A DNA stretch of 64,000 nt. Source: Isurus oxyrinchus. Its lineage: Eukaryota. The stretch covers positions 4,526,001-4,590,000 of the forward strand of contig JANJGN010000023.1 of NCBI GenBank assembly GCA_026770705.1, in the 5' to 3' direction. This document shows positions 1,792 through 43,569 of the stretch, piece by piece. Numbering within the stretch: the stretch's first letter is position 1; each line of letters begins with the position of its first letter. The notes beneath the pieces were generated by a model. It was not told the origin of the DNA. It saw only the letters and a list, made by a program, of their open reading frames with translations, and did not search any database. The position numbers and the translations under genes are program-made.

Positions 1792-3987
1792 GTAAGTGAA
1801 AACAGCTTGCAATTATAGAACACTTCTAACATAGCAAAACACCCCAAGGAGTGTCTCAACTTGGGGTTAATAGAAAAGGGAAATTTAGAATGAACAAGTA
1901 GATTTTAAGGCGACTTCTGGTGTGGGGGAAATGTGACAAGGGAAAAGAGAGTTCCAGATTTAGGGAGGCAGGATGACTGAGAGCACTGCCACTAGTGATA
2001 GAGAGGAATGCACATCACACCAGGGGTTAATAGCGGGCAATGCAAGATTGTACACAGGGCAGGAGAGAGTTGCAGAGGTTGAGAGTGTGAGGCCACAGAT
2101 TGGGGGAGGAGGTTGGGGATTTTGAAATGGGTGCTGAGGAATAGGGTAAAGCCAGTGGGAGACATGACTCCTCCCCAAACATTCTGAGGTCAGTTACCTC
2201 ATGTTGCTCCCAGGAATTTCTGGCACCCTGACTTCAGCCTGGGAGACCACGATTCCAGGTCAGCTTTCAGAGTGGTTAAGTCAGCATTCTCTCAGTTCCA
2301 AACTCCCACCATTTGGCTGTGCCACCGCAGAAGGACAGGAAGCAAAGAGAGGTCAAAAAGGACACAGGACTAAATAGGTGAGCAGCATTTTATACTGAAT
2401 GAACATCACATGTTTTCCTTATTCAGTTACGTTAATACAAAGGTCACTGGGGTTACTTGCAAACTCTCCCATTATCCAAGTGACTTGTTTATTCTTTCTT
2501 CAATCCAATTTGCTTTGCCTTCTCCAAGTTTCACCAAGAAATTATCAGGCAACAAGAACCTCAAACTGACACTTCCATGATGTCTTGTAAACTTGCTTGA
2601 GAACGGACGCTAATATTCTCTCCCTGTGCCTAGCATCCAATCAAATGGATGAAAAAAAACAATTCTGGCAGCATTGAAGGTGCATGTTGGAGGCCAAACA
2701 TCTGGATGTTGGACTGATAGGACAGGTGGAGTGCTAGCTAACAACTTGCTTTTATATAACACTTTTAATATTAGAAACATCCTAACATGCTTCATGGGGT
2801 GTGGGATGGGGACCAATTAACAGGAGCGATGTCCAAAGGAACAGTTCAAAAGACCAGCTTGAGAAACCTTTTAATGGCAGGGTGGGTAGTTTCAAGGAGG
2901 AAGGGTTTAAGAATTAAGTTCTAGAGATTAAGGTCAACAGTGGATCACAGAAAGGGCTGGGGGTTGGGTGGGGGTGGGGGGGAGCAGAACTACCTTCCTG
3001 ACCCCAAATTCCTAATCTTACTCTTGGGCCTGGAGAGGTGGCAAGAGAAGACTGAAGTGATTTAACAGTGGGCGCTATTTGAAGTCGAGTTCTGTGAGAC
3101 AGCTTTCTATACTTTATTACCTCCACTCCCCTATCCCAGCAGTAGACCTGTTCACCAGGGGAGGAAGGGCAATGTGATAGAATGACAGGGAGACTGATTT
3201 TTCTAGGGAGGAGTGGAGTGAGATGCCAACATTAACAAGTCCAGAATTCTACAGTCTGGCCAAGAGATGCAACTAACCACAAAGAACAGAGGGAACGAAT
3301 GCACAGAAGCTTCTGCATATTCCTCATTCCCTAATACATTTATTTTAACCCTAAATACAATGGTTCACATTAAAAGTACTGTTAACAAGTGGATACGGAG
3401 TAAGGAACAGTTGAACAAGCCCATGTCTTTTTGATTGATCTTAACCCACCTATCCATCTTGCACATCACTGAACCATAGGAATTACAACACAGGAGGACA
3501 TTAAGCCCACCCACCCACCCTGTCTGTGCTGGTGTCACTGCTAGCTCTTCAGCTGCAGCTATCTACTCTAAACAATCTTCCAAACTCCTTTCCCCTGTCC
3601 CTACATGTTCTTTTTTTTCAGTTGTCAGCCTTGAGTAAGTGGCTAGCACTCAGAGTCAAAAGGTTGTGGGTCCAAGCTCCTTTCTAGACACTGGGGCACT
3701 GACACTTCAGTACATTACTGAGGGGGTGCTGCACTATCAGAGGTGCTGCCTTTCAGGTGAGAGGCTGAACCAAGACCCCATCTGCCTCCAATAAGCTGAC
3801 ATAAAAGATCCCATGGCACTATTTTGATGAGCAGGGGAGTTCTCAGTGTCCTAGTCAACATTTATCACTCAAACAATATTGAAAACAGATGATCTAGTCA
3901 TTTACTTCACTGCTGTTGTGGGAGCTTGTTGCACCCAAATGATTCCATGTTTCCAACATTACAACAGTGAGTACACTTCAAAAGCAC

Positions 3988-4530
3988 AGTGGCAGTGGCT
4001 TAGCGGTATTGTCTCTGGACTAGTGTTCCAGAGATCCAGGGTAATGTTCTGGAGATAAAAGCAAAATACTGCGGATGCTGGAAATCTGAAACAAAAACAG
4101 AAAATGCTGGAAAAACTCCAACAGGTCGAGCAACATGTGTGGGGATAGAAACAGAGACTGTTCCAGAAGAGAAGCAGAAACTGCTTCTCTCTCCATAGGT
4201 GCTGCTAGACCTGTTGAGTTTTTCCAGCATTTTCTGTTTTTGTTGTTAATGTTCTGGGGACCTGGGTTCAAATTCCACCAAGGCCGATGGTGAAATTTGA
4301 ATTTAATAAAAATCTGGAATTTAAAGTCTGATGATGACCAAGAAACCATTGTTGTAAAAACCCATCAGGGTCACTATTGCCTTAAGGGAAGAAAACCTGC
4401 CATCCTTACCTGGTCTGGCCTACATGTGACTTGAGACCCACAACAATGTGGTTGACTCTTAAATGCCCTCTGAACAAGGGCAATTAGGGATGGGCACTGG
4501 ACTTCCCAGTGGCGCCCACATCTCAAAAAA
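3988..4530 (+). mobile_element. tRNA-headed SINE with LINE-derived 3' tail
   Basis: A box tggcttagcgg (~3995), B box ggttcaaattcc (~4265), tail caagggcaattagggatgggca shared with the LINE at 4605-7422. Confidence 0.8.
4053..4246 (-). mobile_element. Penelope-type inverted-repeat short insertion (older copy)
   Basis: Imperfect palindrome flanked by 11-bp TSD taatgttctgg (4042-4052 / 4247-4257). Confidence 0.8.
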
Positions 4531-4604
4531 ATTGGCTGTGAAATGTTTTCAGCCATAGAAATGCAAACTTCCTCTTATTTTCTTCAAATAGTTATTAAAT
4601 ATAT

Positions 4605-7422
4605 TTATTCATTCACAGGATGTGGGCATCGCTGGCTGGGCCAGCGTTTATTGCCCATCCCTAGTTGCCCTTGAGAAGGTGGTGGTGAGCTGCCTTCTTG
4701 AACCGCTGCAGTCCAAATCATGTAGGTACACCCACAGTTCTGTTAATGAGGGAGTTCCAGGATTTGACCTAGCAACAATGAAGGAACGGTGATATATTTC
4801 CAAGTCAGGATGGTGATGACTTGGAGGGGAACTTCCAGGTGGTGGTATTCCCATCTATCTGCTGCCCTTGTCCTTCTAGATGGTAGTGCTCTTATAGCCA
4901 CAGTATTTATATAGCTAGTCCAGTTCAGTTTCCAATCGATGGTAACCCCCAGGATGTTGATAGTGGGGGATTCAGTGATGGTAATGCCATCAAGGGAAGA
5001 TGGCTAGATTCTCTCTTGTTGGAGATGGTCATTTCCTGGCACTTGTGTGATGTGAATGTTACTTGCCACTTGTCAGCCCAAGCCTGGATATTGTCCAGGT
5101 CTTGTTGCATTTGGAAATAGACTACTTCAGTATCAGAGGGGTCATAATTGGTGCTGAACCTTGTGCAATCATCAGCGAACATCCCTACTTCTGACCTTAT
5201 GATGGAAGGAAGGTCAGTGATGAAGCAGCTGAAGATGGTTGGGCTGAGGACACTATCCTGAGGAACTCCTGCAGTGATGTCCTGGAACAGAGATGACTGA
5301 CCTCCAACAACCACAGCTATCTTCCTTTGTGCTAGGTATGACTCCATCCTGTGGAAGGTTTTCCCCCTGATTCCCTTTGTCTCCAGTTTTGCTATTGCTC
5401 CCTGAAGCCACACTCAGTCAAATGTGACCTTGATGTCAAGGGCCGTCACACTCACCTCACTTTGGGAGTTCAGCTCTTTTGTCCATGTTTGAACCAAGGC
5501 TGTAATAAGGTCAGAGGCTGAGTCTCCCTGGTGGAACCCAAACAGGGCATCAATGAGCAGGTTATTGCTAAGCAAGTACCACTTCATAGCACTCTTGATG
5601 ACTCCTTCCTTTACTGATGATTGAGAGCAGACTGATGAGCCGGTAATTGGCTGGATTGGATTTGTCCTGTTTTTGTGTACAGGACATACATGGGCAATTT
5701 TCCACATAGTCAGGTAGATGCCAGTGTTGTAGCTGTACTGGAACAGTTTGGCTAGGGGCACGGCAAGTTCTGGAGCACAAGTCTTCAGTACTATTGCCGG
5801 TATATTGTCAGGACCCATAGCTTTTGCAGTATCCAGTACCTTCAGCTATTTCTTGATATCATGTGGAGTCAATCGAATTGGCTGAAGACTGGTATCTGTG
5901 ATGCTGGGGACCTCCGGAGGAGGTAGAGATGGATCATCCACTTGCAATTCTGGCTGAAGATTGTAGCAAATGCTTTAGCCTTAACTTTTGCACTGATGTG
6001 CTGAGCTCCCCCATCATTGAGGATGGAGATATTTGTGGAACCTCCTCCTCCAGTGAGTTGTTTAATTGTCCACCACCATTCACAGCTGGATGTGGCAGGA
6101 CTGCAGAGCTTAGATCTGATCCGTTAGTTATGGGATCACTTAACTCTGCCAATCACTTGCTGCTTATGCTGTTTGGCACGCAAATCGTCCTGTGTTTTGG
6201 CTTCACCAGGTTGAGGCCTCATTTTTAGGTATGCCTGGTGCTGCTCCTGGCATGCCCTCCTGCACTCTTCATTGAACCAGGGCTGATCCTCTGGCTTGAT
6301 GGTAATGGTAGAGTGGGGAATATGCTGGGCCATGAGGTTACAGATTGTGTTCAAGTACAATTCTGCTACTGCTGAAGGCCCACAGCGCTTCATGAATGCC
6401 CAGTCTTGAGTTGCTAGATCTGATCAAAATCTATTCATCAGATGGTGGTAGTGCCACACAGCACGATGGAGAGTATCCTCAATGTGAAGGCGGGACTTTG
6501 TCTCCACAATGACTGTGCTGTGGTCACTGTTACCCATACTGTCATGGACAGATGCATCTGCGGCAGGCAGGTTGATGAGGATGTGGTCACGTGTGTTTTT
6601 CCCTCTTGTTGCTTCCCTCACCACCTGTTGCAGACCCAGTCTACCAGCTATGTCCTTTAGGATTCAGCCAGCTCAGTCAGTAGTGTGCTTCCAAGCCAAT
6701 CTTGGTGATGGCCATTGAAGTCCCCCACCCAGAGTACATTCTGCGCCCTTCCCACCCTCAGTGCTTCCTCCAAGTGATGTTCAACATGGAAGAGTACAGA
6801 TTCATCAGCTGAGGGAGGGCGGTACGTGGTAATCAGCAGGAGGTTTCCTTGCCCATGTTTGACCTGATGCCATGAGGCTTCATGGGGTCTGGAGATGATG
6901 TTGAGGACTCCCAAGGCAACTCCCTCCTGACTGTATACCACATATGATTCTGCGAGTATGACTATGTCAGGCTGTTGCTTGACTAGTCTGTAAGACAGCT
7001 CTCCCAGAGCACTCGTCCTCAGATGTTAGTAAGGAGGACTTTGCAGGGTCGACAGGGCTGAGTTTACCACTGTCGTTTCCAGTGTCTAGGTCAATGCTGG
7101 GTGGTCCGTCTGGTTTCATTCCTTTTTTGAGTCTTTGTAGCGGCTTGATACAACTGAGTGCAGTTCAGAGGGCATTTAAGAGTCAACTGGAGTCATATGT
7201 AGATAGGACAGCAGATTTCCTTCCCTAAAGGGAAATTTAAGTGAACCAGATGGGTTTTTACAACAATCGGCAATGGTTTCACGGTCATTGCTAGATTTTT
7301 AATTCCAGATTTTTATTGAATTCAAATTCCACCACCTGTTGTGGCGAGTTCATTCCCAGAGCATTACCATGGGTCTCTGGATGACTAGCCCAGCGACAAT
7401 ACCACTCAGCCATCGCCTCCCC
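4605..7422 (-). mobile_element. Degenerate near full-length CR1-group LINE (APE endonuclease + RT) with SINE-like 5' head
   Basis: Fragments YRPP..WVGDFN (APE), GPDNIP..LK, GVPQDSVLSP, FADD (RT); 3' tail ...cccacatcctgtgaatgaataaa; multiple frameshifts. Confidence 0.88.
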
Positions 7423-7849
7423 TGGGAAGAGACTGGGAGATATGGTTAAAAGGTAGATCGCTGTAGGAGACCGGTTTTTTGGACTTTTCCCATCTCTTCA
7501 TAATCTTGAAGCTGCATTCGTCACCTCAAAGCCTCTTTTCCAAAGACAATACTTTCTTTTTTTTAAAAAAAAAACTCTATTCTCATAAGTTTGATTCCAA
7601 AATTCCAGAATTACCTTTGTTCGGTCCTTTTCAAAGGACAATAATAATTCTCTTGCTGCCTGATGATTAGCTGGCCAGATGGAACAAAAGTCCTGCGGAT
7701 GGCGTCTGACCGACAACTTATTGACTTTTAAGATTGTCTGGGCTTGAAAGTAAGACTGAAATAGTAATCATTACAAAACCACTTAACGCTGCGAGGAAGT
7801 GAACCATTTCCCTTGTAGTGAACAGCTGCTTTCCCCTTTTAAACGGCAG

Positions 7850-8227
7850 GTTGGAGGCTTCGACGGGGCTAACCGCCTTCGGAGTGCTGAGGCTTACAGC
7901 CCCCTCACCAACACCTGGCGCACTTTGCCCACCATGTTTAACCCGCGGAGCAATTTTGGGATTGAGGTGGTGGACGACCTCTTGTTTGTCGTGGGCGGTT
8001 TTAACGGTTTCACGACGACGTTCAACGTCGAGTGCTACGACGAGAAGACAGACGAGTGGTACGACGCCCATGACATGAGCATCTACCGCAGTGCCCTGAG
8101 CTGCTGCGTGGTGCCAGGGCTACCCAACGTTCGAGAGTATGCAGCGCCCAGGGACAGTCTGCTGGGGTTACTGTCCCGCGAGGAACAAATCAAATACTCT
8201 GCCTCTACCAGCCTCTTAGCGGTATGA
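7850..8227 (+). CDS. KLHL10: Kelch-like protein 10, last coding exon
   Basis: cag|GTT GGA GGC; VGGFDGANRLRSAEAYSP...FNPRSNFGIEVVDDLLFVVGGFNGFTTTFNVECYDEKTDEWY...stop at 8227; in phase with the 1642-1791 exon. Confidence 0.93.
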   Translation, partial: VGGFDGANRLRSAEAYSPLTNTWRTLPTMFNPRSNFGIEVVDDLLFVVGGFNGFTTTFNVECYDEKTDEWYDAHDMSIYRSALSCCVVPGLPNVREYAAPRDSLLGLLSREEQIKYSASTSLLAV

Positions 8228-10179: not shown

Positions 10180-10550
10180 GCCGGCAAGAGATTATGTTAC
10201 TGGGCTAGTAATCAAGAATCATGGACTAATGGTCAAATACTACATGGCAGCTGGGGTATTTAAACATTATTATTTAAAAGAAGCAGCAACGGTGACCATA
10301 TAACTTCTGGAATTTCATTAAAAACACACCCAGATCACTAATACCCTTTAATTTGCCATTGGTCTGGCTTGTGTGTGGCTCCAGATCCACCGTAACATGA
10401 CTGACTTTTAACTGCCCTATGAAATAGCCTTGGAGACCATCCCATTGCATTCAAGAATGTGGCTCACCGCAACTTAATCAAGGGCAATTAGGGATGAGCA
10501 TTTATGCTGCATTTACCAGCAATGCCCACACCCTGAGAATGAATTAAAAA
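10180..10550 (+). mobile_element. Diverged copy of the tRNA-headed SINE
   Basis: actgggctagtaatc...ggtctggc...tcaagggcaattagggatgagca...gaatgaattaaaaa. Confidence 0.65.
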
Positions 10551-10569
10551 ACAGAGGGCATCAAACTTT

Positions 10570-11686
10570 TTTTATTCGTTCACAGGATGTGGGTGTCACT
10601 GGCTGGGCCAGTATTTATTGCCCATCTCTAATTGCCCTTGAGAAGGTGATGGTGAGCTGCCTTCTTGAACCGCTGCAGTCCATGTGGTGTAGGGAGGGAG
10701 TTCCAGGATTTTGACCCAGCAACAGTGAAGGAAAGGTGGTGTATTTCCAAGTCAGGAGATTCACAAGAATGATTCCTGGGATGATGAACTGTAACTATGA
10801 GGATAGATTGGAGAGGTCGGGTCTGTTTTGCTTGAAGAAAAGGAGACTTGATAGAGGTATTCAAGTTCCTGAGGGGTATGGACAGGCTAAATAGTGAGAA
10901 AATGTTCCCACTCAAGAGAACAGCTAGAACTAGAGGGTACAGATTCGAAATAATTGGCAAAAGGAGTAAATGTGGTGAGGAAAAGTTTTTTCACCCAGAG
11001 GGTGGTTGGAGTCTGGAAGGAACTTCCTGAAAGTGTAGTGGAGGCAGGTTCGATCGAGGTATTCAAAAGGGAATTGGATTGCTATCTGAAAAGAGAGCAC
11101 GCGCAAGATTACAGGGATAAGGCAGGGGAATGGGACTAGGTGGAATGCTCTTTCAGAGAGCTAGTGCAGACTCAATGGGCCAAACGACCTCCTTCTGCAT
11201 TATAAATATACAGTGATACTGTGTGCAACTTGGAGAGGAACTTGCAGGTGGTGGTGTTCCCATGCATCTGCTGCCCATGTCCTTCTAGGTCGTAGAGATC
11301 ACAGGTTTGGAATGTGCTGTTGAAGGAGCCATGGTGAGTTGTTACAGTGCATTTGTAGATGGTACATACTGCTGCCAATGTGTGTTGGTGGTGGAAGGAG
11401 TGAATGTTTAAGGTGATGCAGGGGGTGCCAATCATTCAGGCTGCTTTGTCCTAGATGATGTTGAGCTTCTTGAGTGTTGTTGAAGCTGCATTCATCCAGA
11501 CAAGTGGAGAGTATTCGATCACACTTCTGACTTGTGCCTTGTAGATGGTGGACAGGCTTTGGGAAGTCAGGTGGCGAGTTACTCGCCACAGAATTCCCAG
11601 CCCCTGACCCGCTCTTGTAGCCACAGTATTTATATGGCTAGTCCAGTTCAGTTTCTGGTCAATGGTAACCTCCAAGATGTAGATAG
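10570..11686 (-). mobile_element. 3' part of host LINE (same family as 4605-7422), cut by the LTR element; contains a + strand CR1 3' fragment at ~10757-11205
   Basis: VTIDQKLNWTSHINTVATRAGQ...YKAQVRSVIEYS; the sequence stops exactly at the LTR TG and resumes at ~25007. Confidence 0.85.
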
Positions 11687-12653
11687 TGTTGGAATCATAT
11701 CTCTCAAGACTAAATTTTTCTTTTACAAAATGGAAGGACTTGGCATTATTTGTACATTTGGATGTTGACCTGGGTTTTTTTCAAAAAGGTCATAAGTTCA
11801 CTTTGGAAGTGTCAACAAACAGGCCTCTTCGAAGAAATCACCTGACCTTTATTTTACTGGTGGAAGATCTTGTCGAAGATTGTTTGTTTTGAACTGTAAT
11901 CACTTTAATTGATGGGGAAAGAAACTGAAGAAAATCAAAGACTAATAACTTTCTGGAAATCACATGGGAGAAAGAAAAAAAATCTTGAAGTTGTGAAGCT
12001 GCCGGTTTTGAAGGCAGCCTGGTTGGGGAACAAGCTGAGGAAAGTAGGCTACCTTAACTGGCTCTCTCTCTCTCTACCATGTCTAAAATTGTACGTGGCT
12101 ATCAACCTGTAGCCAGAGAACCCTCATCTGGGTGTAACTGGTCTGCATTTGGACCTGCAAAGCTGAGACCAGTTGGTGAGAATTTCCAAACGTCACCAGG
12201 ACCAATGACCTGTCATCAGATGACAGAACTCCAAGTCGACAGTGTCAAGGTCCTGCGCACTTTATCCTTTATTTTATAATGCTCATCCTCTAAAGCTCAT
12301 CTCTGCAGAGAGACTCTAACTGTGCTTTACTTGTCTGTGTGTCTGTGTGTGTGTGTTTCTGTGTGTGCACACGTGCGTGCTGGGGGAATTCTGTAGGAAG
12401 AGATAGTTATACTTCCCGATTACAACTGTGTGTTAACCCAGTACTTGTAACTTGTTAAAAAAAATTGTTTTATAATAAACAATTGTTCTGAGTTTACTGA
12501 AAGAAGCCTTGTTGAAGATTCTTTTATTCTGGGCACCATTAGGAGAAATAGGTGATTGGCTATTTTGGTGAGAAAATTAAACTTTTAAATTAATGGTACA
12601 GCAGAGTAGTGGGGCTAGATCATACATGCACTTCTCCCATCCCGGTTGTAACA
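11687..12653 (+). repeat. 5' LTR
   Basis: TGTT...AACA termini; direct repeat of 22515-23372. Confidence 0.9.
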
Positions 12654-16190: not shown

Positions 16191-19100
16191 GTCAGTGGTC
16201 AGGATCAGCAGGGTGTGACTGCAAGTGAGGCAGGTAGAAGGATCCTGTGTTCAGGAACAGAGGAGCCTCAGCTCTTGACCTTGTCCAACAGGTACGAGGT
16301 ACTTGCTCCCTGTGTGGATGAGGAACAGGGCTGTAGGGAGGATGAGCCAGCTGACCACCGCACCATGGCACAGGAGGCCATTCAAGAGGGGGGGAGCAAA
16401 AAGACAAGTGGTAGTTGTAGGGGATTCTATAATTAGGGGAATGGATAGCAACCTTTGTAAGCAGGATCGAGAGTCCCGCATGGTATGTTGCCTGCCCAGT
16501 GCCAGAGTGAGGGACATCTCTGACCGGCTTGAAAGGATATTAGAAAGCGAGAGGGAGGATCCAGTTGTTGTGGTTCACGTCGGGGCAAATAACATAGGTA
16601 AGACTAGGAACTAGGAACTAAATTAAAGAACAGGTCCTCAAAGGTTATAATCTCCGGATTACTACCCGAGCCACATGCAAATTGGCATAGGGACGTGAGA
16701 ATAAGAGAAGTAAACATGTGGCTAAAGGAGTGGTGCGGAAAAGAGGTGTTCCATTTCGTGGGGCACAGACGTCAGTATTGGAACAGGAGGGATCTGTACC
16801 GTTGGGGCGGTCTCCACCTGAACCAATCTGGGACCAATGTTCTAGCGAAAAGGGTAAATAGGGTGGTCAACAGGACTTTAAACTAGAAAGTGGGGGGGGC
16901 GGGAGGGGAGGGTAAAACCCCAAGAAGTATGACTAATGGAAAACAAAGCAGCATGTTGTGGGGGGAGGGGATGGATTCAACTTCATGGAAAATTATGAAA
17001 AAACTGAAAAGGAAAGCCCAGAAGAGGCTATTAAAATCTCCAGAACACAAAATAGGACAGACTGTTTGGAAAGGGCTAGGAATCTAACTTCAAGCACATC
17101 AGATAAAGGGACGACAATGAGAAAGGGGATGGGAAATACAGGACTGAAGGTTTTGTATCTGAATGCATGCAGTATACAAAATAAGGTAAATGAGCTTGTG
17201 GCGCAGATTGAAATTGGCAGGTATGATGTGGTGGGCATCACGGAGACATGGCTGCAAGGGGATCAGGACTGGGAGCTAAATATCCAAGGATATACATCCT
17301 ATTGAAAAGATAGGTAGGTTGGCAGAGGGGGTGGGGTTGCTTTGTTAGTAAAAAATGAAATTAAATCAAGAGCAAGAAATGATGTAGGGTCAGGTGATGT
17401 AGAATCTGTGTGGGTAGAGTTGAGGAACCGCAAAGGTAAAAAAACCACAATGGGAATTATGTACAGGCCTCTGAACAGTAGTCAGGATGTGGGGCATAAG
17501 ATACACCAGGAGATAGAAAAGTCGTGTAAGAAAGGCAAGGTTACAGTGATCATGGGGGATTTCAATATGCAGGTAGACTGAGAAAATCAGATTGGTAGTG
17601 GATCCCAAGAAAAGGAATTTGTGGAATGTCTACGAGATAGCTTTTTGGAGCAGCTTGTGGTGGAGCCCACTAGGGAACAGGCAATTCTAGATTTAGTGAT
17701 GTGTAATGAGGCAGATTTGATAAGGGAGCTTAAGGTGAAGGAACCCTTAGGAGGAAGTGACCATAATATGATAGAATTTACCCTGCATTTTGAGAGGAAA
17801 AAGCTGGAATCAGATGTAACTGTATTACAGTTGAATAAAGGCAACTACAGAGGCATGAGGGAGGAGCTGGCCAGAACTGACTGGGAGATGAGCCGAGCAG
17901 GAAAGACAGTGGAACAGCAATGGCAGGAGTTTCTGGGAGTAATTTGGGACACACAGCAAACATTCATCCCTAGGAAGAAGAAGCATACAAAGGGAGGACG
18001 AGGCAACCATGGCTAACAAGGAAAATCAGGGACAGCATAAAAGCTAAAGAGAAAGCATACAATGCGGCGAAGAGCAGTGGGAAACCAGAGGATTGGGTAG
18101 CCTACAAAAACCAACAGAGGACAACTAAAAAAGAAATGAGGGAGAAGATTAAATATGAGGGTAAACTACCCAGAAATATAAAAGAAGATTGCAAGAGTTC
18201 TTTTAGATATATAAAGGGTAAGAGAGAGGCAAAAGTGGACATTGAGCCGCTGGAAAATGACGCTGGAGAAGTAGTAGTGGGGAACAAAGAAATGGCGGAA
18301 GAACTGAATAGGTACTTTGCGTCAGTCTTCATGGTGGAAGACACAAGTTACATCCCCAAAGTTCAAGGGTCGGGGGGCAGAGGTGAGTATGGTGGCCATT
18401 ACCAAGGAGAAGGTGCTAGTAAAATTGAAAGGTCTGAAGGTGGATAAATCACCTGGACCAGATGGATTACACCCCAGAGTTCTGAAGGAGATAGCTGAAG
18501 AGATAGTGGAGGCGTTAGTGTGATCTTTCAGCAATCACTGGAGTCAGGGAGGGTCCCAGAGGACTGGAAAATCGCTAATGTAACCCCCTGTTTAAGAAGG
18601 GAGTGAGGCAAAAGACGGGAAATTACAGACTGATTAGTCTAACCTCGGTCGTTGGTAAGATTTTAGAGTCCATTATTAAGGATGAGATTTCAGAATACTT
18701 GGAAGTGCATGGTAAAATAGGGCAAAGTCAGCATGGTTTCATCAAGGGGAGGTCGTGCCTGACAAATCTGTTAGAATTCTTTGAGGAGGTAACGAGCAGA
18801 TTAGGAGAGCCAATGGATGTTATTTACTTGGACTTCCAGAAGGCCTTTGACAAGGTGCCGCACAGGAGGCTGCTCAGTAAGATAAGAGCCCATGGTGTTA
18901 AGAGGCAAGGTACTAGCATGGATAGAATATTGGCTGTCTGGCAGGGGGCAGAGAGTGGGGATAAGGGGATCCTTCTCAGGATGGCAGCTGGTGACTAGTG
19001 GAATTCCGCAGGGGTCAGTATTGGGACCACAACTTTTCACTTTATACATTAATGATCTAGATGAAGGAACTGAGGGCATCCTGACTAAGTTTGCAGATGA

Positions 19101-20025
19101 TACAAAGATAGGTGGAGGGACAGGTAGTATTGAGGAGGCGGGTTGGCTGCAGAAGGATTTGGACAGGTTAGGAGAATGGGCAAAGAAGTGGCAGATGGAA
19201 TACAATGTGGGGAACTGTGAGGTCATGCACTTTGGTAGGAAGAATAGAGGCATAGACTATTTTCTAAATGGGGAGAGAATTCAGAAATCTAGAGTGCAAA
19301 GGGACTTGCGAGGCTTGGTCCAGGATTCTCTTAAGGTTAACTTGCAGGTTGAGTCAGTAGTTAGTAAGGCAAATGTAATGTTGGCATTTATTTCGCGGGG
19401 ACTAGAACATAAAAGCAGGGATGTGCTGCTGAGGCTTTATAAGGCTCTGGTCAGACTACATTTAGAATATTGTGAGCAATTTTGGGCCCCGAATCTCAGG
19501 AAGAATGTGCTGGCCCTGGAGAGGGTCCAGAGGAGGTTCACGAGAACGATCCCAGGAATGAAAGGCTTAACATATGAGGAACGTTTGAGGACTCTGGGTC
19601 TATACTCAAATGGAGTTTAGAAGGATGAGGGGGGGTATCTGATTGAAACTTACAGAATACTGAAAGGCCTGGATAGAGTGGACGTGGGGAAGATGTTAAG
19701 ATGTTTCCATTAGTAGGAGAGACTAGGACCCGAGGGCACAGCCTCAGAGTAAAGGGAAGATCTTTTAGAACAGAGATGAGGAGAAACTGCTTTAGCTAGA
19801 GAGTGGTGAATCTATGGAATGCATTGCCACAGAAGGCTGTGAAGGCCAGGTCATTGAGTGTATTTAAAACCGAGATAGATAAGTTCTTGATTGGTAAGGG
19901 GATCAAAGGTTACGAGGAGAAGGTGGGAGAATGGGGTTGAGAAACTTATCAGCCCTGATTGAATGGCAGAGCAGACTCGATGAGCTGAATGGCCTAATTT
20001 CTGCTTCTATGTCTTATGGTCTTAT
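16191..20025 (+). mobile_element. Long CR1 LINE with ORF1 SGNH-esterase domain and ORF2 APE-RT, inserted in the integrase
   Basis: VVVVGDSIIRG...VVVHVGANNI (esterase); YLNACS, GITETW, MGDFN (APE); PQGSVLGP, FADD (RT); (tcttatgg)n tail; integrase GKPQ|TIKPASLIPI resumes after it. Confidence 0.92.
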
Positions 20026-24995: not shown

Positions 24996-25006
24996 CTCTT
25001 ATGATT

Positions 25007-25285
25007 TGCTCTTGTTGGAGATGGTCATTGCCTGGAACTTGTGAGACACAAATGTTAGTTGCCACTTATCAGCCCAAGCCTGGATATTGTCCAGGTCTTG
25101 CTGCATGTGGACACGGACTGCTTCAGTGTTTGAAGAGTCGCAAGTAGTGAACGCTGTGCAATCATCAGCAAACATCCCCAATTCTGATCTTATGTTGGAG
25201 GGAAGGTCATTGATGAAGCAGCTGGAGATGGCTGGGACTAGGACACTACTCTGAGGAACTCCTGCAGCGATGTCCCGGGACTGAT
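25007..25285 (-). mobile_element. Continuation of the host LINE interrupted at 11686
   Basis: GMFADDCT...MQQDLDNIQAWADKWQ, collinear with the 4925-5413 ORF. Confidence 0.8.
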
Positions 25286-33069: not shown

Positions 33070-33795
33070 CACATTGAAGCAATGGATGTTATCCACTATG
33101 GATTTTAAGAAAACATTTCACAAAGTACCACATAAAGGGCTGGTTAACAAAATTGTGGCTCATGGAATAGGAGGGTCAAAGTCAACTTGGATTTAAAAAG
33201 TTGGCTTAAGGACAGAAAACAGCAAATTATGGTAAATGGTTATTCTTCAGATTGTCCACCATCTACAAGGCACAAGTCAGGAGTGTGATGGAATACTCTC
33301 CACTCGCCTGGATGAGTACAGCTCCAACAACACTCAAAAAGCTCAACATCTTCCAGGACAAAACAGCCTGCTTGATTGGCACCCCATCAACCAACTTTAA
33401 ATTCGCTCTCTACGAAACTAGCACACAGTATCATTTGTGTATACAATATACAAGATGCACTGCAGCAGCTCGCTAAGACTTCTCTAACTGTATCTTCCAA
33501 ACCTGTGACCTCTACCATCTAGAAGGACAAAGGGACCAGATACATGAGAACACTACACCAGCAAGTTCCCCTCCAAGTCACTCATCATCCAAACTTGGAA
33601 GTATAATCATCATTCCTTCACTACCAGTGGGTTAAAATCCAGGAATGCCCTCTCCAATAGCATGGTGGGTGTAACTACACAACACAAACTGCAACAGTTC
33701 AAGAAGGTGGCACACCACCACATTCTCAAGGGTAATTAGGGATAGACAATAAATGCTGGCCATGCCTGGGGTGCCCACATCTCAAGAAGGAAGTT
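33070..33795 (+). mobile_element. Adjacent CR1 RT fragment and LINE 3' fragment
   Basis: MDVIHYGF..K (YLDF-like) then YKAQVRSVMEYSPLAW; tail taattagggatagacaataaatgctggcc. Confidence 0.75.
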
Positions 33796-34004
33796 AAAAA
33801 AAGGGGGTGAGGAGTTTAAGAAAATGGCTTGCAGTAGAGAAAAGCAGGGTTGTCTTTGCTTTCCAGGCCAATCCTGAACTAAAAAGCAGGTTTCACAAAG
33901 GAGAGCAGGACCCAATAGTGCTTTACATGGTCCAGGCAGATCTGGTAGTGAATGGCTAAACCAGCTGTCCATCAAATCTATTCAAGTTTGCTTCCCTTGG
34001 ATTT

Positions 34005-34715
34005 TTTTCATTCATTTACGGGATGTGGGTGTAGCTGGCCAGGCCAGCATTTATTGTCCCTCCCCATTTGCCCTTGAGAAGGTGGTGGCGGTGTTGCCTT
34101 CTTGAACTGCTGCAGTCCAGGTGATGTAGTTACACCCACAGTGCTGTTGTGGTTGGGGTGGGATGGTGGGGGGAGTTGCAGGACTACAGGATTTTGACCC
34201 AGCGACAGTGAGGGAACAGCGATATATTTCCAAGTCAGGATGCTGTGTGACTTGCATGGGATCTTGTCCTTCTTGACGGTAAGGGTTGTGGGTTTGGAAG
34301 GTGCTGTCTATGGAGCCTTGGTGAATTCCTGCAGTGCATCTTGTAGATGGTACACACACTGCTGCCACTGTGCGTCGGTGGTGGAGGGAGTGAATATTTG
34401 TGGATGAGGTGCGAATCAAGCAGGCTGCTTTGTCCTGGATGGTGTCAACCTTCTTGATGACGTGGGAGCTGCACTCATCCAGGCAAGTACTAATGTCCTT
34501 TAGGGACAGAAATCTCCCGTCCTTACCTGGTCTGGCCTACATGTGACTCCAGACCCACAACAATGTTGTTGACTTTCAAATGCCCTCTGAACAAGGGCAA
34601 TTAGGGATGGGCAATAAATGCTGGCCTAGCCAGCAACCCTCGCATCTCATGAATGAATAAAAAAGTATTCCATCACGCTCCTGACTTGTGCCTTATGGAC
34701 AGGCTTTGGAGAGGT
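34005..34715 (-). mobile_element. LINE 3' fragment containing a + strand truncated SINE (~34488-34665)
   Basis: NIHSLHHRRTVAAV; the inner SINE ends gaatgaataaaaaa. Confidence 0.75.
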
Positions 34716-34954
34716 AAAGGAAGCAAAGGTGAAAACTATAACAGGGATTGGCCAGGGTGAGAGGGGAGATTATTTTAATGGGGAAGAAAACATTGCACTG
34801 AGAAAAATTATTTCCTGCAAAAATGTTGTAGTGAATGCAGGGTCAAAGGTTGGAGAGATTGGATTTGAAATCACAGCTGTAAATGAATTGGGAAAGATTT
34901 TCTTCCAGGGGAAGACACAGGAGGAAGTAAGATTTGGTGGGAGATGTTTTTTTA

Positions 34955-36165
34955 ATTCATTCATTCATGCGAAGTGGGCTTCACTAGCTGTGCCAGCATT
35001 CATTGCCTATCCCTAAATGCCTTCAAGAAGGCGGTGGTGAGCTGCCTTCTTAAACCGCTGCGGTCCATGTGGCGTAATTACACCCACAGTGCTGTTAGGA
35101 AGAGGCTTCCAGGATTTTGACCCAGCGACAGAGAAGGAAAGGCAATATATTTCTAAATCAGAATGGTGAGTGGCTTGGAGAGGAACTTCCAGGTGGCGGT
35201 GGTCCTATCTATCTGCTGCCCTTGTCCTTCTGGATGGTAGTGGTCGTGGGTTTGGAAGGCGCTGTCTAAGGAGCCTTGGTGAATTCTTGCAGTGCATCTT
35301 ATAGATGGCTCCCACTGCTGCTACTGTGTGTCGGTGGTGGAGGGAGTGAATGTTTGTGGAGGTGCCAATCAAGCAGATTGCTTTGTCCTGGACAGTGTCA
35401 AGCTTCTTGAGTGTTGTGGGAGCTGCACTTATCCAGGTACGTGGGGAGTATTCCGTCACACTCTTGACTTGTGCCTTCTAGATGGTGGACAGGCATGGGG
35501 ATTCAGGAGGTGAGTTACTCGTCGCAAGATTCCTAGCCTCTGGGCTGCTCTTGTAGCCACTGTATATGTATATTACTAGTCCAGTTCAGTTTCTGGTCAA
35601 TGGTAATCCCCAGGATGTTGATAGTAGGGGGTTCAGTGATGGTAACGCCATTGAATGTCATGGGGCGATGGTTAGATTCTCTCTTGTTGGAGATGGTCAC
35701 TGCCTGGCACTTGTGTGGATGAAAATTACTTGCCACTTATCAGCCTAAGCCTGGATATTGTCCAGGTCTTGCTGCATTTGGACATGGACTGCTTCAGTGG
35801 CTGAGGAGTCAAAATGGTGCTGAACATTGTGCAATCATCAGCAAACATCCCCACTTTTGACCTTATGATGGAAGGAAGGTCATTGATGAAGCAGCTAAAA
35901 ATAGTTGGGCCTAGGACACTACCCTGAGGAACTCCTGTAGTGATGTCCTGGGGCTGAGATGATTGACCTCTAACACAACCATCTTCCTTTGTGCTAGGTA
36001 GGACTCCAACCAGTGGAGAGTTTTCCCCCCGATTTCCACTGACTCCAGTTTTGCTAGGGCTCCTTTTCGCCACACTCTGTCAAATGCACACTTGAGGATG
36101 GGGGCAGTCACTCTCATCACACCTCTGGAAATCAGCTCTTTTGTCCATGTTTGAAGCAAGGCTGG
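34955..36165 (-). mobile_element. 5'-truncated LINE (RT + 3' tail)
   Basis: GVPQGSVLGPTIFSCFINDLP..FADDCT. Confidence 0.85.
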
Positions 36166-41029: not shown

Positions 41030-43050
41030 TTTAAAGGCTGATGATTAACTTGTTTCGCCACGGCATGTACACACCTTCGGTGGCCATCAATCCTGTGGGA
41101 CTTGAACCCAGAACCTCTAGCCCAGAGCTAGAGGCACTACCACTGTGCCACAACACCTCCTAAATTTAATTCCCTGACTGCCCAAAAATCTATTGACCTC
41201 TATCTTGAATGTCCTCAACCATTGCGCATCCACAGCTGTCAGGGGTAAAGAATTCCAAAGACTCAACTTCTGAGTGAAGAAATTTCTCCTCCTCAGCCCG
41301 TTAGGTTCTACATAATTGTAATGAATTGCAAGTCTTTCATTCCTTGGTATTGTATAGTCACAAGAGTAAAAAAAATTGCAGGAGTAAGCAATTTGACGCT
41401 GCTCTACAATTTTAATATGATCGTGAAGGATAGTGCAGATCGGTGCACTCTTTCCACGCCCCACTCCCCCCCCCCCCCCCCACCCCCACCCCCGCCCCAA
41501 TGCTATTCCTGCATCCTTTACTTCCCTTGGAAACAAATCTATGGATCTGTCATGAACATACTCAGTGACTGAGCACCCACAGCTTTCTGGGGTAGAGAAT
41601 TCCAACAATCACAACACTTTTGAGTGAAGAAATTTTTCCTCATCTCAGCTCTAAATGGCCAACTCCTTATTCTGAGATTGTGACACTTTCAAAAGCAACT
41701 TATAACATTATTTAGGGTAGATAAATATGTACCAATTAAATCACCTCTTACATCTTCTAAATTTCAGACTATAGTTCTAGTGCGACTTGACTGTAACATA
41801 TGAAATCCTGAGGGGTCTTGACAGGGTGGATGTGGAAAGGATGTTTCCTCTGGTGGGAGAATTTAGAATTTGGGATCAGTTTAAAAATAAGGGGTCACCC
41901 ACTTAAGACAGAAGGAGGAGAAATTTTTTCTCTGAGGATCCTGAGTCTTTGGAACTCTTCCTCAAGACGGTGGAGGCAGAGTCTTTGAATATTTTTAGGG
42001 CAGAGGTGGGTAGATTTTTGGTTACAAGGGGTTGAAAGGTTATTGGGAGTAGCCAGGAAAGTGGAGTTGCAGTTAAAATCAGATTAGCCATGATCTCATT
42101 GAATGGCGGAGCAAGCCTACTCCTGCTCCTAATTCACATGTTTATATATATGCTCATATGTAAATGCACAGTCTCTTCTCATAGGACAATCCCCTCATGT
42201 CAGTCATCAATTTAGCAAACTTTTGTTGCATTCTCTCCAAGGGTAGTATATTCTTCCTTAGGTAAGGATTCAAAAACTGCACACAATTTACGAGCACGGG
42301 CAATCAAGGCTGTTTGGAATTGTAGTAAGACCACACTTAAACTCCAACCCTTTTGTAATAAAAATTGCATTTTGTAGCTGCTTGTTTTTCTAATTTATTT
42401 GTTCACAGGATGTGGGTGTTGCTGCCAAGGCCAGCATGTTTTAACCATGCTTAATTGCCCTCGGAGGTGGTGGTTAGCCTTCTCGAACCACTGCAGTCCA
42501 TGTAATGTAAGTACACCCACAGTGCTGCTAGGGAGTTCCTGGATTTTGACCCAGTGACAGCGAAGATTAGCAATATAATTCCAAGTCAGGATGGTGTGTG
42601 ACTAGCTTGGAAACACCACCACCTGCAAGTTCCCCTCAATCTGCTGCCCTTGTCCTTCTAGTTGGTAGAGGTCACAGTTTTGGAAGGTGTTATCAAAGAA
42701 GCCTTGGTAACTGGCTGCAGTGCATCTTGTAGATGGTATATACTGCTGACATTGTTCATCAGTGGTGGAGGGAGTGAATGTTTCAGGTGGTGGATGGGGT
42801 GCCAGTCAAGCAGGCTACTTTGTCTGGGATGGTGTCGAGCTTCTTGAGTGTTGTTGGAGCTGCACTCATCCAGGTAAATGGAGAGTATCCCATTGCATTC
42901 CTGACTTGTGCCTTGTCGATGTTGGACAGGCTTTGGAGAGTCAGGTGGTGGGTTACTCGCTGCAGGATTCCTAGCTTCTGGCCTGCTCTTGTAGCCACAA
43001 TATTTAAATGGCTAGTCCAGTTCAGTTTCTGGTCAAATGGTAACCTCCAA
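41030..43050. mobile_element. Cluster of SINE and LINE 3' fragments in both orientations
   Basis: tRNA-like head on minus ~41050-41160; CR1 tails minus ~41165-41760; CR1 tail plus ~41790-42145; LINE minus ~42395-43050 (DQKLNWTSHLNIVATRAGQ). Confidence 0.7.
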
Positions 43051-43569
43051 GCTATTGATTTAACTTTGCAACTAATGTACAAGGACACACTTAATTACTT
43101 AAAGCTGTATTATGAATGTTAAAATGTAATTCAAACTGACATTTTTAATGCAACAACCATGTTTTACTTTTGTAACAATCAGCATCTAAAAAGACTCCTG
43201 CCTTAGTATGTAAATTGACTAATTAATACCAACTTAAAAAGACCAGGTTACATTCATAGTCTACACTGTGGTAATTGAAATGAACGAGAGAATCACTAAC
43301 TTCAGCGCTGGCCAAGTATATTGGTTAGACAACTATTTAATTTGAAGTGGCAGGACTAAGGTTATTGTCTTGGATGGTCATCATATCCTGTATAAATCAC
43401 CTAAGAGGTTGATGCAGTGAAATTCAATTAAAATATCCAAGTTCAGATTGGACAGATGAATGAAGGAAAAGAGGAGGAAGGGAAATGGCTCTACATATAA
43501 TACCAACACTGACTAGTTGCATCAAGTGGCCTGCTTCCATGGTGTAACTGCTGGGTGTGTATTCAGGAA

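Follow-up and report, generated by a model that had tools for sequence, protein, structure and literature searches.

In the textbook division of retrotransposons, LINEs are coding and transcribed by Pol II, and SINEs are non-coding and transcribed by Pol III. The 64,000-nucleotide window of Isurus oxyrinchus DNA analysed here (contig JANJGN010000023.1, positions 4,526,001 to 4,590,000) contains a LINE that begins with a tRNA-like sequence. Is this sequence part of the LINE, and if so, could the element combine a coding ORF with Pol III transcription? The LINE copy is composed as follows.

4605..7422, minus strand: full-length decayed copy of the tRNA-headed Zenon LINE, ~8% (7.9% mismatch) off the family majority
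7339..7422, minus strand: head resembling tRNA-Thr(AGU), in which ~20 nt are inserted ahead of the T arm, from alignment to the genome's tRNA-Thr(AGT) genes (L230, L232)
7402..7412, minus strand: A box, from the sequence and the column counts in copies
7377..7393, minus strand: anticodon-arm-like hairpin, its loop that of tRNA-Thr(AGU) in most copies and mutated in this one
7343..7353, minus strand: B box site, mostly deleted in this copy (deletion at ~7352) and intact in the family majority
7163..7338, minus strand: 5' body common to the LINE and the SINE family, by eye without match to the Meta-domain consensus
7036..7163, minus strand: start region, with an out-of-frame AUG at 7119 in this copy
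6510..7036, minus strand: APE endonuclease remnant (Pfam PF14529 on the natural copy L033)
4990..5764, minus strand: reverse transcriptase remnant, frameshifted (Pfam RVT_1 on window 4928-5413)
4661..4990, minus strand: C-terminal region of the ORF up to the family stop, with a 309-nt deletion at ~4889
4605..4677, minus strand: 3' tail common to LINE and SINE, A-rich at its end and bearing a signal that resembles AATAAA

The head as the 5' end of the LINE family

The window copy is dead. Its ORF is broken by several frameshifts, by stops, by a 90-nt deletion at ~6942 inside the APE remnant and by the 309-nt deletion, and its B box is mostly gone. The head sequence quoted in the preliminary description was found on the minus strand at 7422-7163, collinear with the head (3988-4055) and body (4247-4475) of a neighbouring SINE; the LINE and this SINE are 84% identical over 57 nt of head and 70% identical over 199 nt of body. 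The APE domain starts at ~7036, about 130 nt past the end of the shared segment at 7163, and this bears out the earlier remark that there is no room for ORF1. With its single ORF for APE and RT, no ORF1 and poly(A) 3' tails on its copies, the element is not short and non-coding as a SINE2 would be. No sequence relative of the APE part was found in the PDB.

By sequence, the element belongs to the elasmobranch Zenon family of the CR1 group. The first 400 letters of the published CarCar_Zenon-1 match the aligned copies of this genome almost letter for letter, as judged by eye (PMC13343379). In the RT tree, the element groups (99/98) with 14 mostly unnamed proteins, one of them from amphioxus, apart from the CR1-like control of the same genome; the tree contains no named Zenon. 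The absence of ORF1, which had been taken as unusual, is the rule here, for Stuart et al. (2026) describe Zenon LINEs in five elasmobranchs as always lacking ORF1 and carrying a poly(A) tail (PMC13343379). Their elements (CarCar, HypSab, RhiTyp and ScyCan Zenon-1; SquAca Zenon-1/2/3) are of the same family and ~3.3 kb long, and the accessible text presents neither a T-run analysis nor a link to SINEs, unlike the present work. The family and its lack of ORF1 were thus already known, and the head is printed in the published consensus without comment there. By eye, it stands at the start of 7/7 elasmobranch rows from five species and is absent from two hagfish rows and one coelacanth row, over the first 400 letters given. 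Neither "tRNA" nor Pol III is mentioned in the main text, preprint or supplement (cells to 400 letters) of that report.

Chance adjacency, in which a SINE landed beside a 5'-truncated LINE at the window locus only, is conceivable in a genome dense in SINE and LINE fragments. When the 4.98-Gb genome was searched with the junction as query, 38 of the 39 non-self main matches began inside the head and continued into the ORF; these come from the best 40 of 12,351 candidates, a selection that favours junction-like loci. The junction copies have a sharp 5' edge, and their upstream flanks are unrelated to each other. Among 20 copies fetched whole, 18 reach the same 3' end, mostly over 3.1-3.25 kb, the length of the family in this genome, and the fetched copies diverge 7-11.5% from the column majority. 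Since this search is biased toward the junction, two further searches were anchored downstream. A 34-nt motif ~330 nt inside the element returned 25 loci, 22 with the head upstream, and an APE-only query returned 29 other loci; in 14 of these the head lies where its distance from the APE predicts (two are copies of one duplicated locus). The headless loci of both searches are cut at scattered places, as 5'-truncated LINE copies are, and neither an alternative shared 5' end nor an ORF1 was found upstream of them. In addition, all 20 loci fetched with the protein of a distant relative as query are of this same Zenon family.

The head-ORF junction therefore recurs at the level of the family, as the preliminary description had expected, and the two outcomes that would have spoken against it, a junction unique to this locus and a conventional ORF1 in the family, were looked for and did not appear. 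Chance adjacency is refuted, because the junction recurs at dozens of loci, spread over different contigs, and in the published consensus of five species; we assign it a negligible probability. The head and body are the true 5' end of the LINE family. Target-site duplications are mostly missing or eroded among the fetched copies. In one Zenon copy (L055/L087, G000:C4:198.30 Mb), the APE region has been amplified in tandem to over 20 units, each ~61 nt long.

The tRNA-like head and the neighbouring SINE

The head aligns with tRNA-Thr(AGT) genes across the anticodon loop and the T arm, and a motif search of the genome gave eight matches, two of which are tRNA-Thr(AGT) genes. A five-pair anticodon stem is retained, with letters that differ from those of the genes. 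The A- and B-box columns are well conserved among copies, CpG decay aside. "tRNA-Thr-like" is a fair wording, because the Rfam tRNA match on copy L068 is weak (16.5 bits, E 1.1, below gathering) and ARAGORN called no tRNA at the window head or in six family loci. In the window region itself, Rfam detected no tRNA, and four heads folded singly had no clear advantage over shuffled sequences. With its A and B boxes, the head of the family majority has the layout of a tRNA-derived Pol III promoter (type 2). It is plausible that it was captured, by template switch, from an older SINE or a tRNA.

A MetaSINE origin of the 5' body was considered and rejected: by eye, the body is unlike both the Meta consensus and the EptSINE1 heads (PMC7245038 supplement). 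MetaSINE heads are likewise Thr-like (PMC4824008), and MetaSINEs are recognised by a 66-bp Meta domain directly after such a head; by eye, the Zenon LINE lacks this arrangement.

The SINE beside the LINE has the following parts.

3988..4531, plus strand: bipartite SINE with the same head and body and the LINE 3' tail (short-breakpoint class); A box at 3996-4006, B box at 4265-4276
4056..4246, no strand: palindromic insertion (~190 nt) in the SINE head, with 29-nt perfect inverted arms

The B-box consensus is GWTCRANNC. The boxes of this SINE had been called perfect, which is right for the A box; the B box has one mismatch to the consensus, and the two boxes are split by the ~190-nt insertion, which lies between two direct copies of a 14-nt sequence (4042-4055 and 4247-4260). 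The SINE does not end at 4470, where its end had been placed, but runs to ~4531, its last ~55 nt being the 3' tail of the Zenon LINE. At 3988-4531 it is short and non-coding, as SINE2 elements are.

The SINE family consists of the 5' and 3' ends of the Zenon LINE joined to each other. Its junction pattern has 1155 exact matches in the genome, and among the 100 matches listed at least three breakpoint classes occur; the longer classes hold ~23 extra nt of LINE sequence, including AUG-GCC-UAG. In the first 30 of 3564 exact matches to a body motif, the ORF follows in eight, the LINE tail in 20 and neither of them in two, and no third tail type was found among these 30. The head is retained at 20/30 SINE loci and differs from the LINE head at a few sites, so the SINE had masters of its own. 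The Zenon family also occurs in contigs of four runs, which cover four organisms, and in contigs of another organism these two LINE regions are joined at additional points. Taken together, the SINE family looks like an internal-deletion offspring of the LINE and not the donor of its head. The earlier picture of an autonomous LINE with a captured tRNA-derived promoter thus stands as regards the ORF1-less, autonomous-type LINE and its A/B-box head, and is not supported as regards the neighbouring SINE as donor.

Several known systems resemble parts of this arrangement. The lepidopteran Zenon has likewise given rise many times to short elements in which its 5' and 3' ends are combined, named Persaeus, which are described without tRNA homology or a Pol III promoter (Wang et al. 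2019, PMC6740152). In contrast, the shark derivatives inherit the head from their parent LINE, which makes them true tRNA-headed SINEs. Bov-tA, AfroSINE and SINE1-1_EBu, derived from RTE/Vingi elements, also combine a small-RNA head with a LINE 5' part and a 3' tail (Kojima 2018, PMC5786205; Kojima 2020, PMC7245038). In the published account of these, a non-autonomous LINE that had already undergone deletion acquired the head, and its autonomous counterpart is regarded as a Pol II element, whereas in Zenon the autonomous element is itself headed. RTE-1_DAn and elements related to it, LINEs of a different clade, are said to contain a tRNA-like sequence, as Zenon does (PMC5786205). In sharks and rays, the tRNA-headed HE1 SINE has been paired with the CR1-group LINE HER1 by their common tail (PMC3747384). 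The window SINE, which has head, body and tail in common with Zenon, is set apart by the description of HE1. HE1 is a V-SINE that has only its tail in common with canonical CR1. No report of a Pol III-driven or tRNA-headed autonomous LINE was found in the literature searched, which lay outside Repbase, Dfam, SINEBase and most subscription papers.

An older repeat at 3690-3985 and 4532-4560 (minus strand), into which the bipartite SINE appears to be inserted, resembles, as we take it, a Deu-domain SINE. A second bipartite SINE fragment lies at 34489-34661.

Avoidance of T-runs along the LINE

The reading we prefer is that the Zenon LINE is likely a Pol III-transcribed, protein-coding LINE with a 3.2-kb RNA and one APE-RT ORF. 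Alternatively, the LINE could be an ordinary Pol II element. Its RNA would then stem from host read-through or from a promoter for Pol II within the body, and the head would be either a relic of capture or a structured RNA segment that serves stability, translation or RT binding. We consider this unlikely. In the published consensus rows, the A and B boxes are conserved in sharks and in a ray, with a variable arm in between, which argues against the Pol II reading. The A tail and the AATAAA close to the 3' end are equally compatible with Pol II, and a capped RNA would make translation easier.

Pol III terminates at sense-strand runs of at least four T. A 3.2-kb Pol III unit must avoid T4 runs, because Pol III would stop at them. 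The Zenon family majority sequence (median depth 75) has none, and 14 A4, 11 C4 and 9 G4 runs. The missing TTTT alone is weak evidence, because its probability is ~0.20 in dinucleotide shuffles with TT fixed and 0.09 in synonymous shuffles. The depletion extends to shorter runs: T3 runs number 6 against 21.6 expected, a count as low in 0/1500 shuffles, and within the ORF 4 against 12.8 under synonymous codon shuffling (0/5000 as low). None of the 88 Leu codons of the majority ORF is TTA, and TT is under expectation in every region of the element. As controls, two further LINE families from this genome were handled identically; their majorities hold 7 and 11 T4 runs. Pentamers with at least four T occur 2 times in Zenon against 21.9 expected, and 41 against 27.9 and 39 against 23.3 in the controls. 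The observed/expected ratio of T|T at codon boundaries is 0.26 in Zenon and 1.08 and 1.12 in the controls; that of TT overall is 0.68 as against 1.17 and 1.14. Natural copies behave alike, with 0.39 T4 per kb in Zenon versus 2.65 and 6.17 in the controls. Five of seven full-length Zenon copies examined have no TTTT at all, whereas 3-9 per kb occur in the sequence on either side of them. A second majority, built from 20 copies selected by protein and seeded from the first majority, again has no T4.

The avoidance of T-runs is new sequence evidence that favours Pol III transcription, independently of the boxes. A Pol II element could be poor in T if this were a trait of its clade, or if U-rich binding or splice signals were avoided. 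A general Pol II pressure does not account for the depletion, since the two control families show none. In the 5' regions of hagfish, coelacanth and one butterfly Zenon, to which the comparison with headless elements extends, T4-T6 runs do occur, and this also speaks against the Pol II reading. On the other side, the Phe content of the shark Zenon protein is 1.8%, and that of some close invertebrate relatives, including amphioxus Hypp5830, is 1.5-2.6%. T-avoidance may predate the head, because Phe is low in these relatives too, and this lends the Pol II reading some support; it also hints that a Pol III lifestyle may be older and wider than the elasmobranch family. The low-Phe invertebrate relatives (P0010, P0011-P0013, P0015-P0017) may avoid T-runs as well. 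Metagenomes scanned for a clade-matched control gave distant (23-39%) relatives only, several with an upstream ORF, and viral contigs scanned for a Zenon-clade control gave nothing.

At the 3' ends of L036, L041, L044, L046, L047, L050 and others, a variable T-run abuts the A tail. T4 or longer lies directly before the tail in 7/18, 5/29, 3/28 and 0/8 3' ends. These runs, variable in length, may be a built-in Pol III terminator or may reflect tail decay.

Translation start and the proposed mode of life

The majority ORF has ~975 codons with APE and RT motifs, and one homopolymer frameshift at a site where the copies split. In the family, the start region encodes an Arg-rich N-terminal stretch (within 7036..7163, minus strand, in window coordinates), and it has an AUG in frame, behind which a stop usually comes at codon 3 and/or 9. 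The in-frame AUG is in strong context in 63/70 copies. Codon 3 is TAG in 43/70 copies, GAG in 9 and CAG in 6, and codon 9 is TAA in 20/70; a sense codon 3 (GAG or CAG) occurs together with TAT at codon 9 in only 8/70. A dependable AUG start is lacking, because the in-frame AUG mostly runs into an early stop and the second AUG of the region is out of frame. The same AUG-GCC-UAG is found in six of the seven published elasmobranch Zenon consensus rows. Readthrough of the stop in this motif was considered and is not favoured, given the TAA at codon 9 in 20 of the copies; it is further disfavoured by the frame across the A-rich linker, which by eye varies among the published rows. No unbroken ORF occurs among the copies examined, and the best 47 candidates scored with the relative's protein all contain stops. 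For the stingray, 3 of 612 ORF2 are listed as intact (PMC13343379).

Pol III RNAs that are long and uncapped are translated poorly. Initiation independent of AUG is known from R2 and from further LINEs processed by ribozymes. The start pattern fits AUG-independent initiation on an uncapped RNA. It also fits a second alternative, in which the headed copies are "mega-SINE" passengers: Pol III would make the RNA that is inserted, and the protein would be supplied in trans by a few copies that are transcribed by Pol II or have an open AUG. The stop right behind the in-frame AUG in most copies, the eight copies with sense codon 3 and TAT codon 9, and the motif in six of the seven published rows are all what such passengers might show. 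The family majority, however, retains the ~975-codon ORF with its APE and RT motifs, and no separate helper family appeared among the 20 loci fetched with the distant relative's protein. Moreover, T-avoidance at synonymous sites indicates that coding constraint and Pol III-type constraint acted on the same lineage. We regard the passenger explanation as improbable, more so than the Pol II one.

Under the preferred reading, that of a Pol III-transcribed coding LINE, TFIIIC would bind the A and B boxes and Pol III would start at the head. Selection against premature termination would strip T-runs from the ORF while the protein is retained. Transcription would run past the A tail and stop at the first genomic T-run, and the 3' AATAAA might direct polyadenylation. 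The weakest step is translation, in which the uncapped RNA would have to be read without a dependable AUG, by non-AUG initiation or re-initiation. The protein would then insert its own RNA by target-primed reverse transcription via the 3' tail. Internal deletions of such an element would yield ready-made Pol III SINEs, complete with promoter and tail, which now outnumber the LINE.

With somewhat less confidence than for the transcription itself, we favour the view that the lineage switched to Pol III, so that one uncapped, tRNA-headed RNA serves as both mRNA and template, and thereby became a major repeat family of sharks and rays that gives rise to SINEs by internal deletion. If so, Zenon would break the textbook split between LINEs and SINEs and would offer a natural example of a long uncapped Pol III RNA being translated. 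A SINE could then be born in one step, by deletion of the middle of a promoter-bearing LINE, which reverses the model in which the head is added later. The T-run signature would also provide a cheap screen for similar elements in repeat libraries.

The window holds further repeats and a Kelch-repeat exon. Other 5'-truncated Zenon fragments lie at 10450-11697, 25003-25284, 33512-36164 and 42393-43059. A young CR1-like family (window 17048-19557, plus strand; L136-L160) has copies 96.6% identical to their own majority, in which a frame of 1002 codons stays open. ARAGORN calls a tRNA-Gln(CTG) at 41088-41157 (minus strand); it has no T-run behind it, adjoins a LINE fragment and is probably the head of another SINE. 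A Kelch-repeat exon at 7787-8224 (plus strand; Pfam Kelch_1, E 1.5e-23) is presumably KLHL10-like, and the Zenon LINE lies antisense to it, ~370 nt upstream and probably in an intron.
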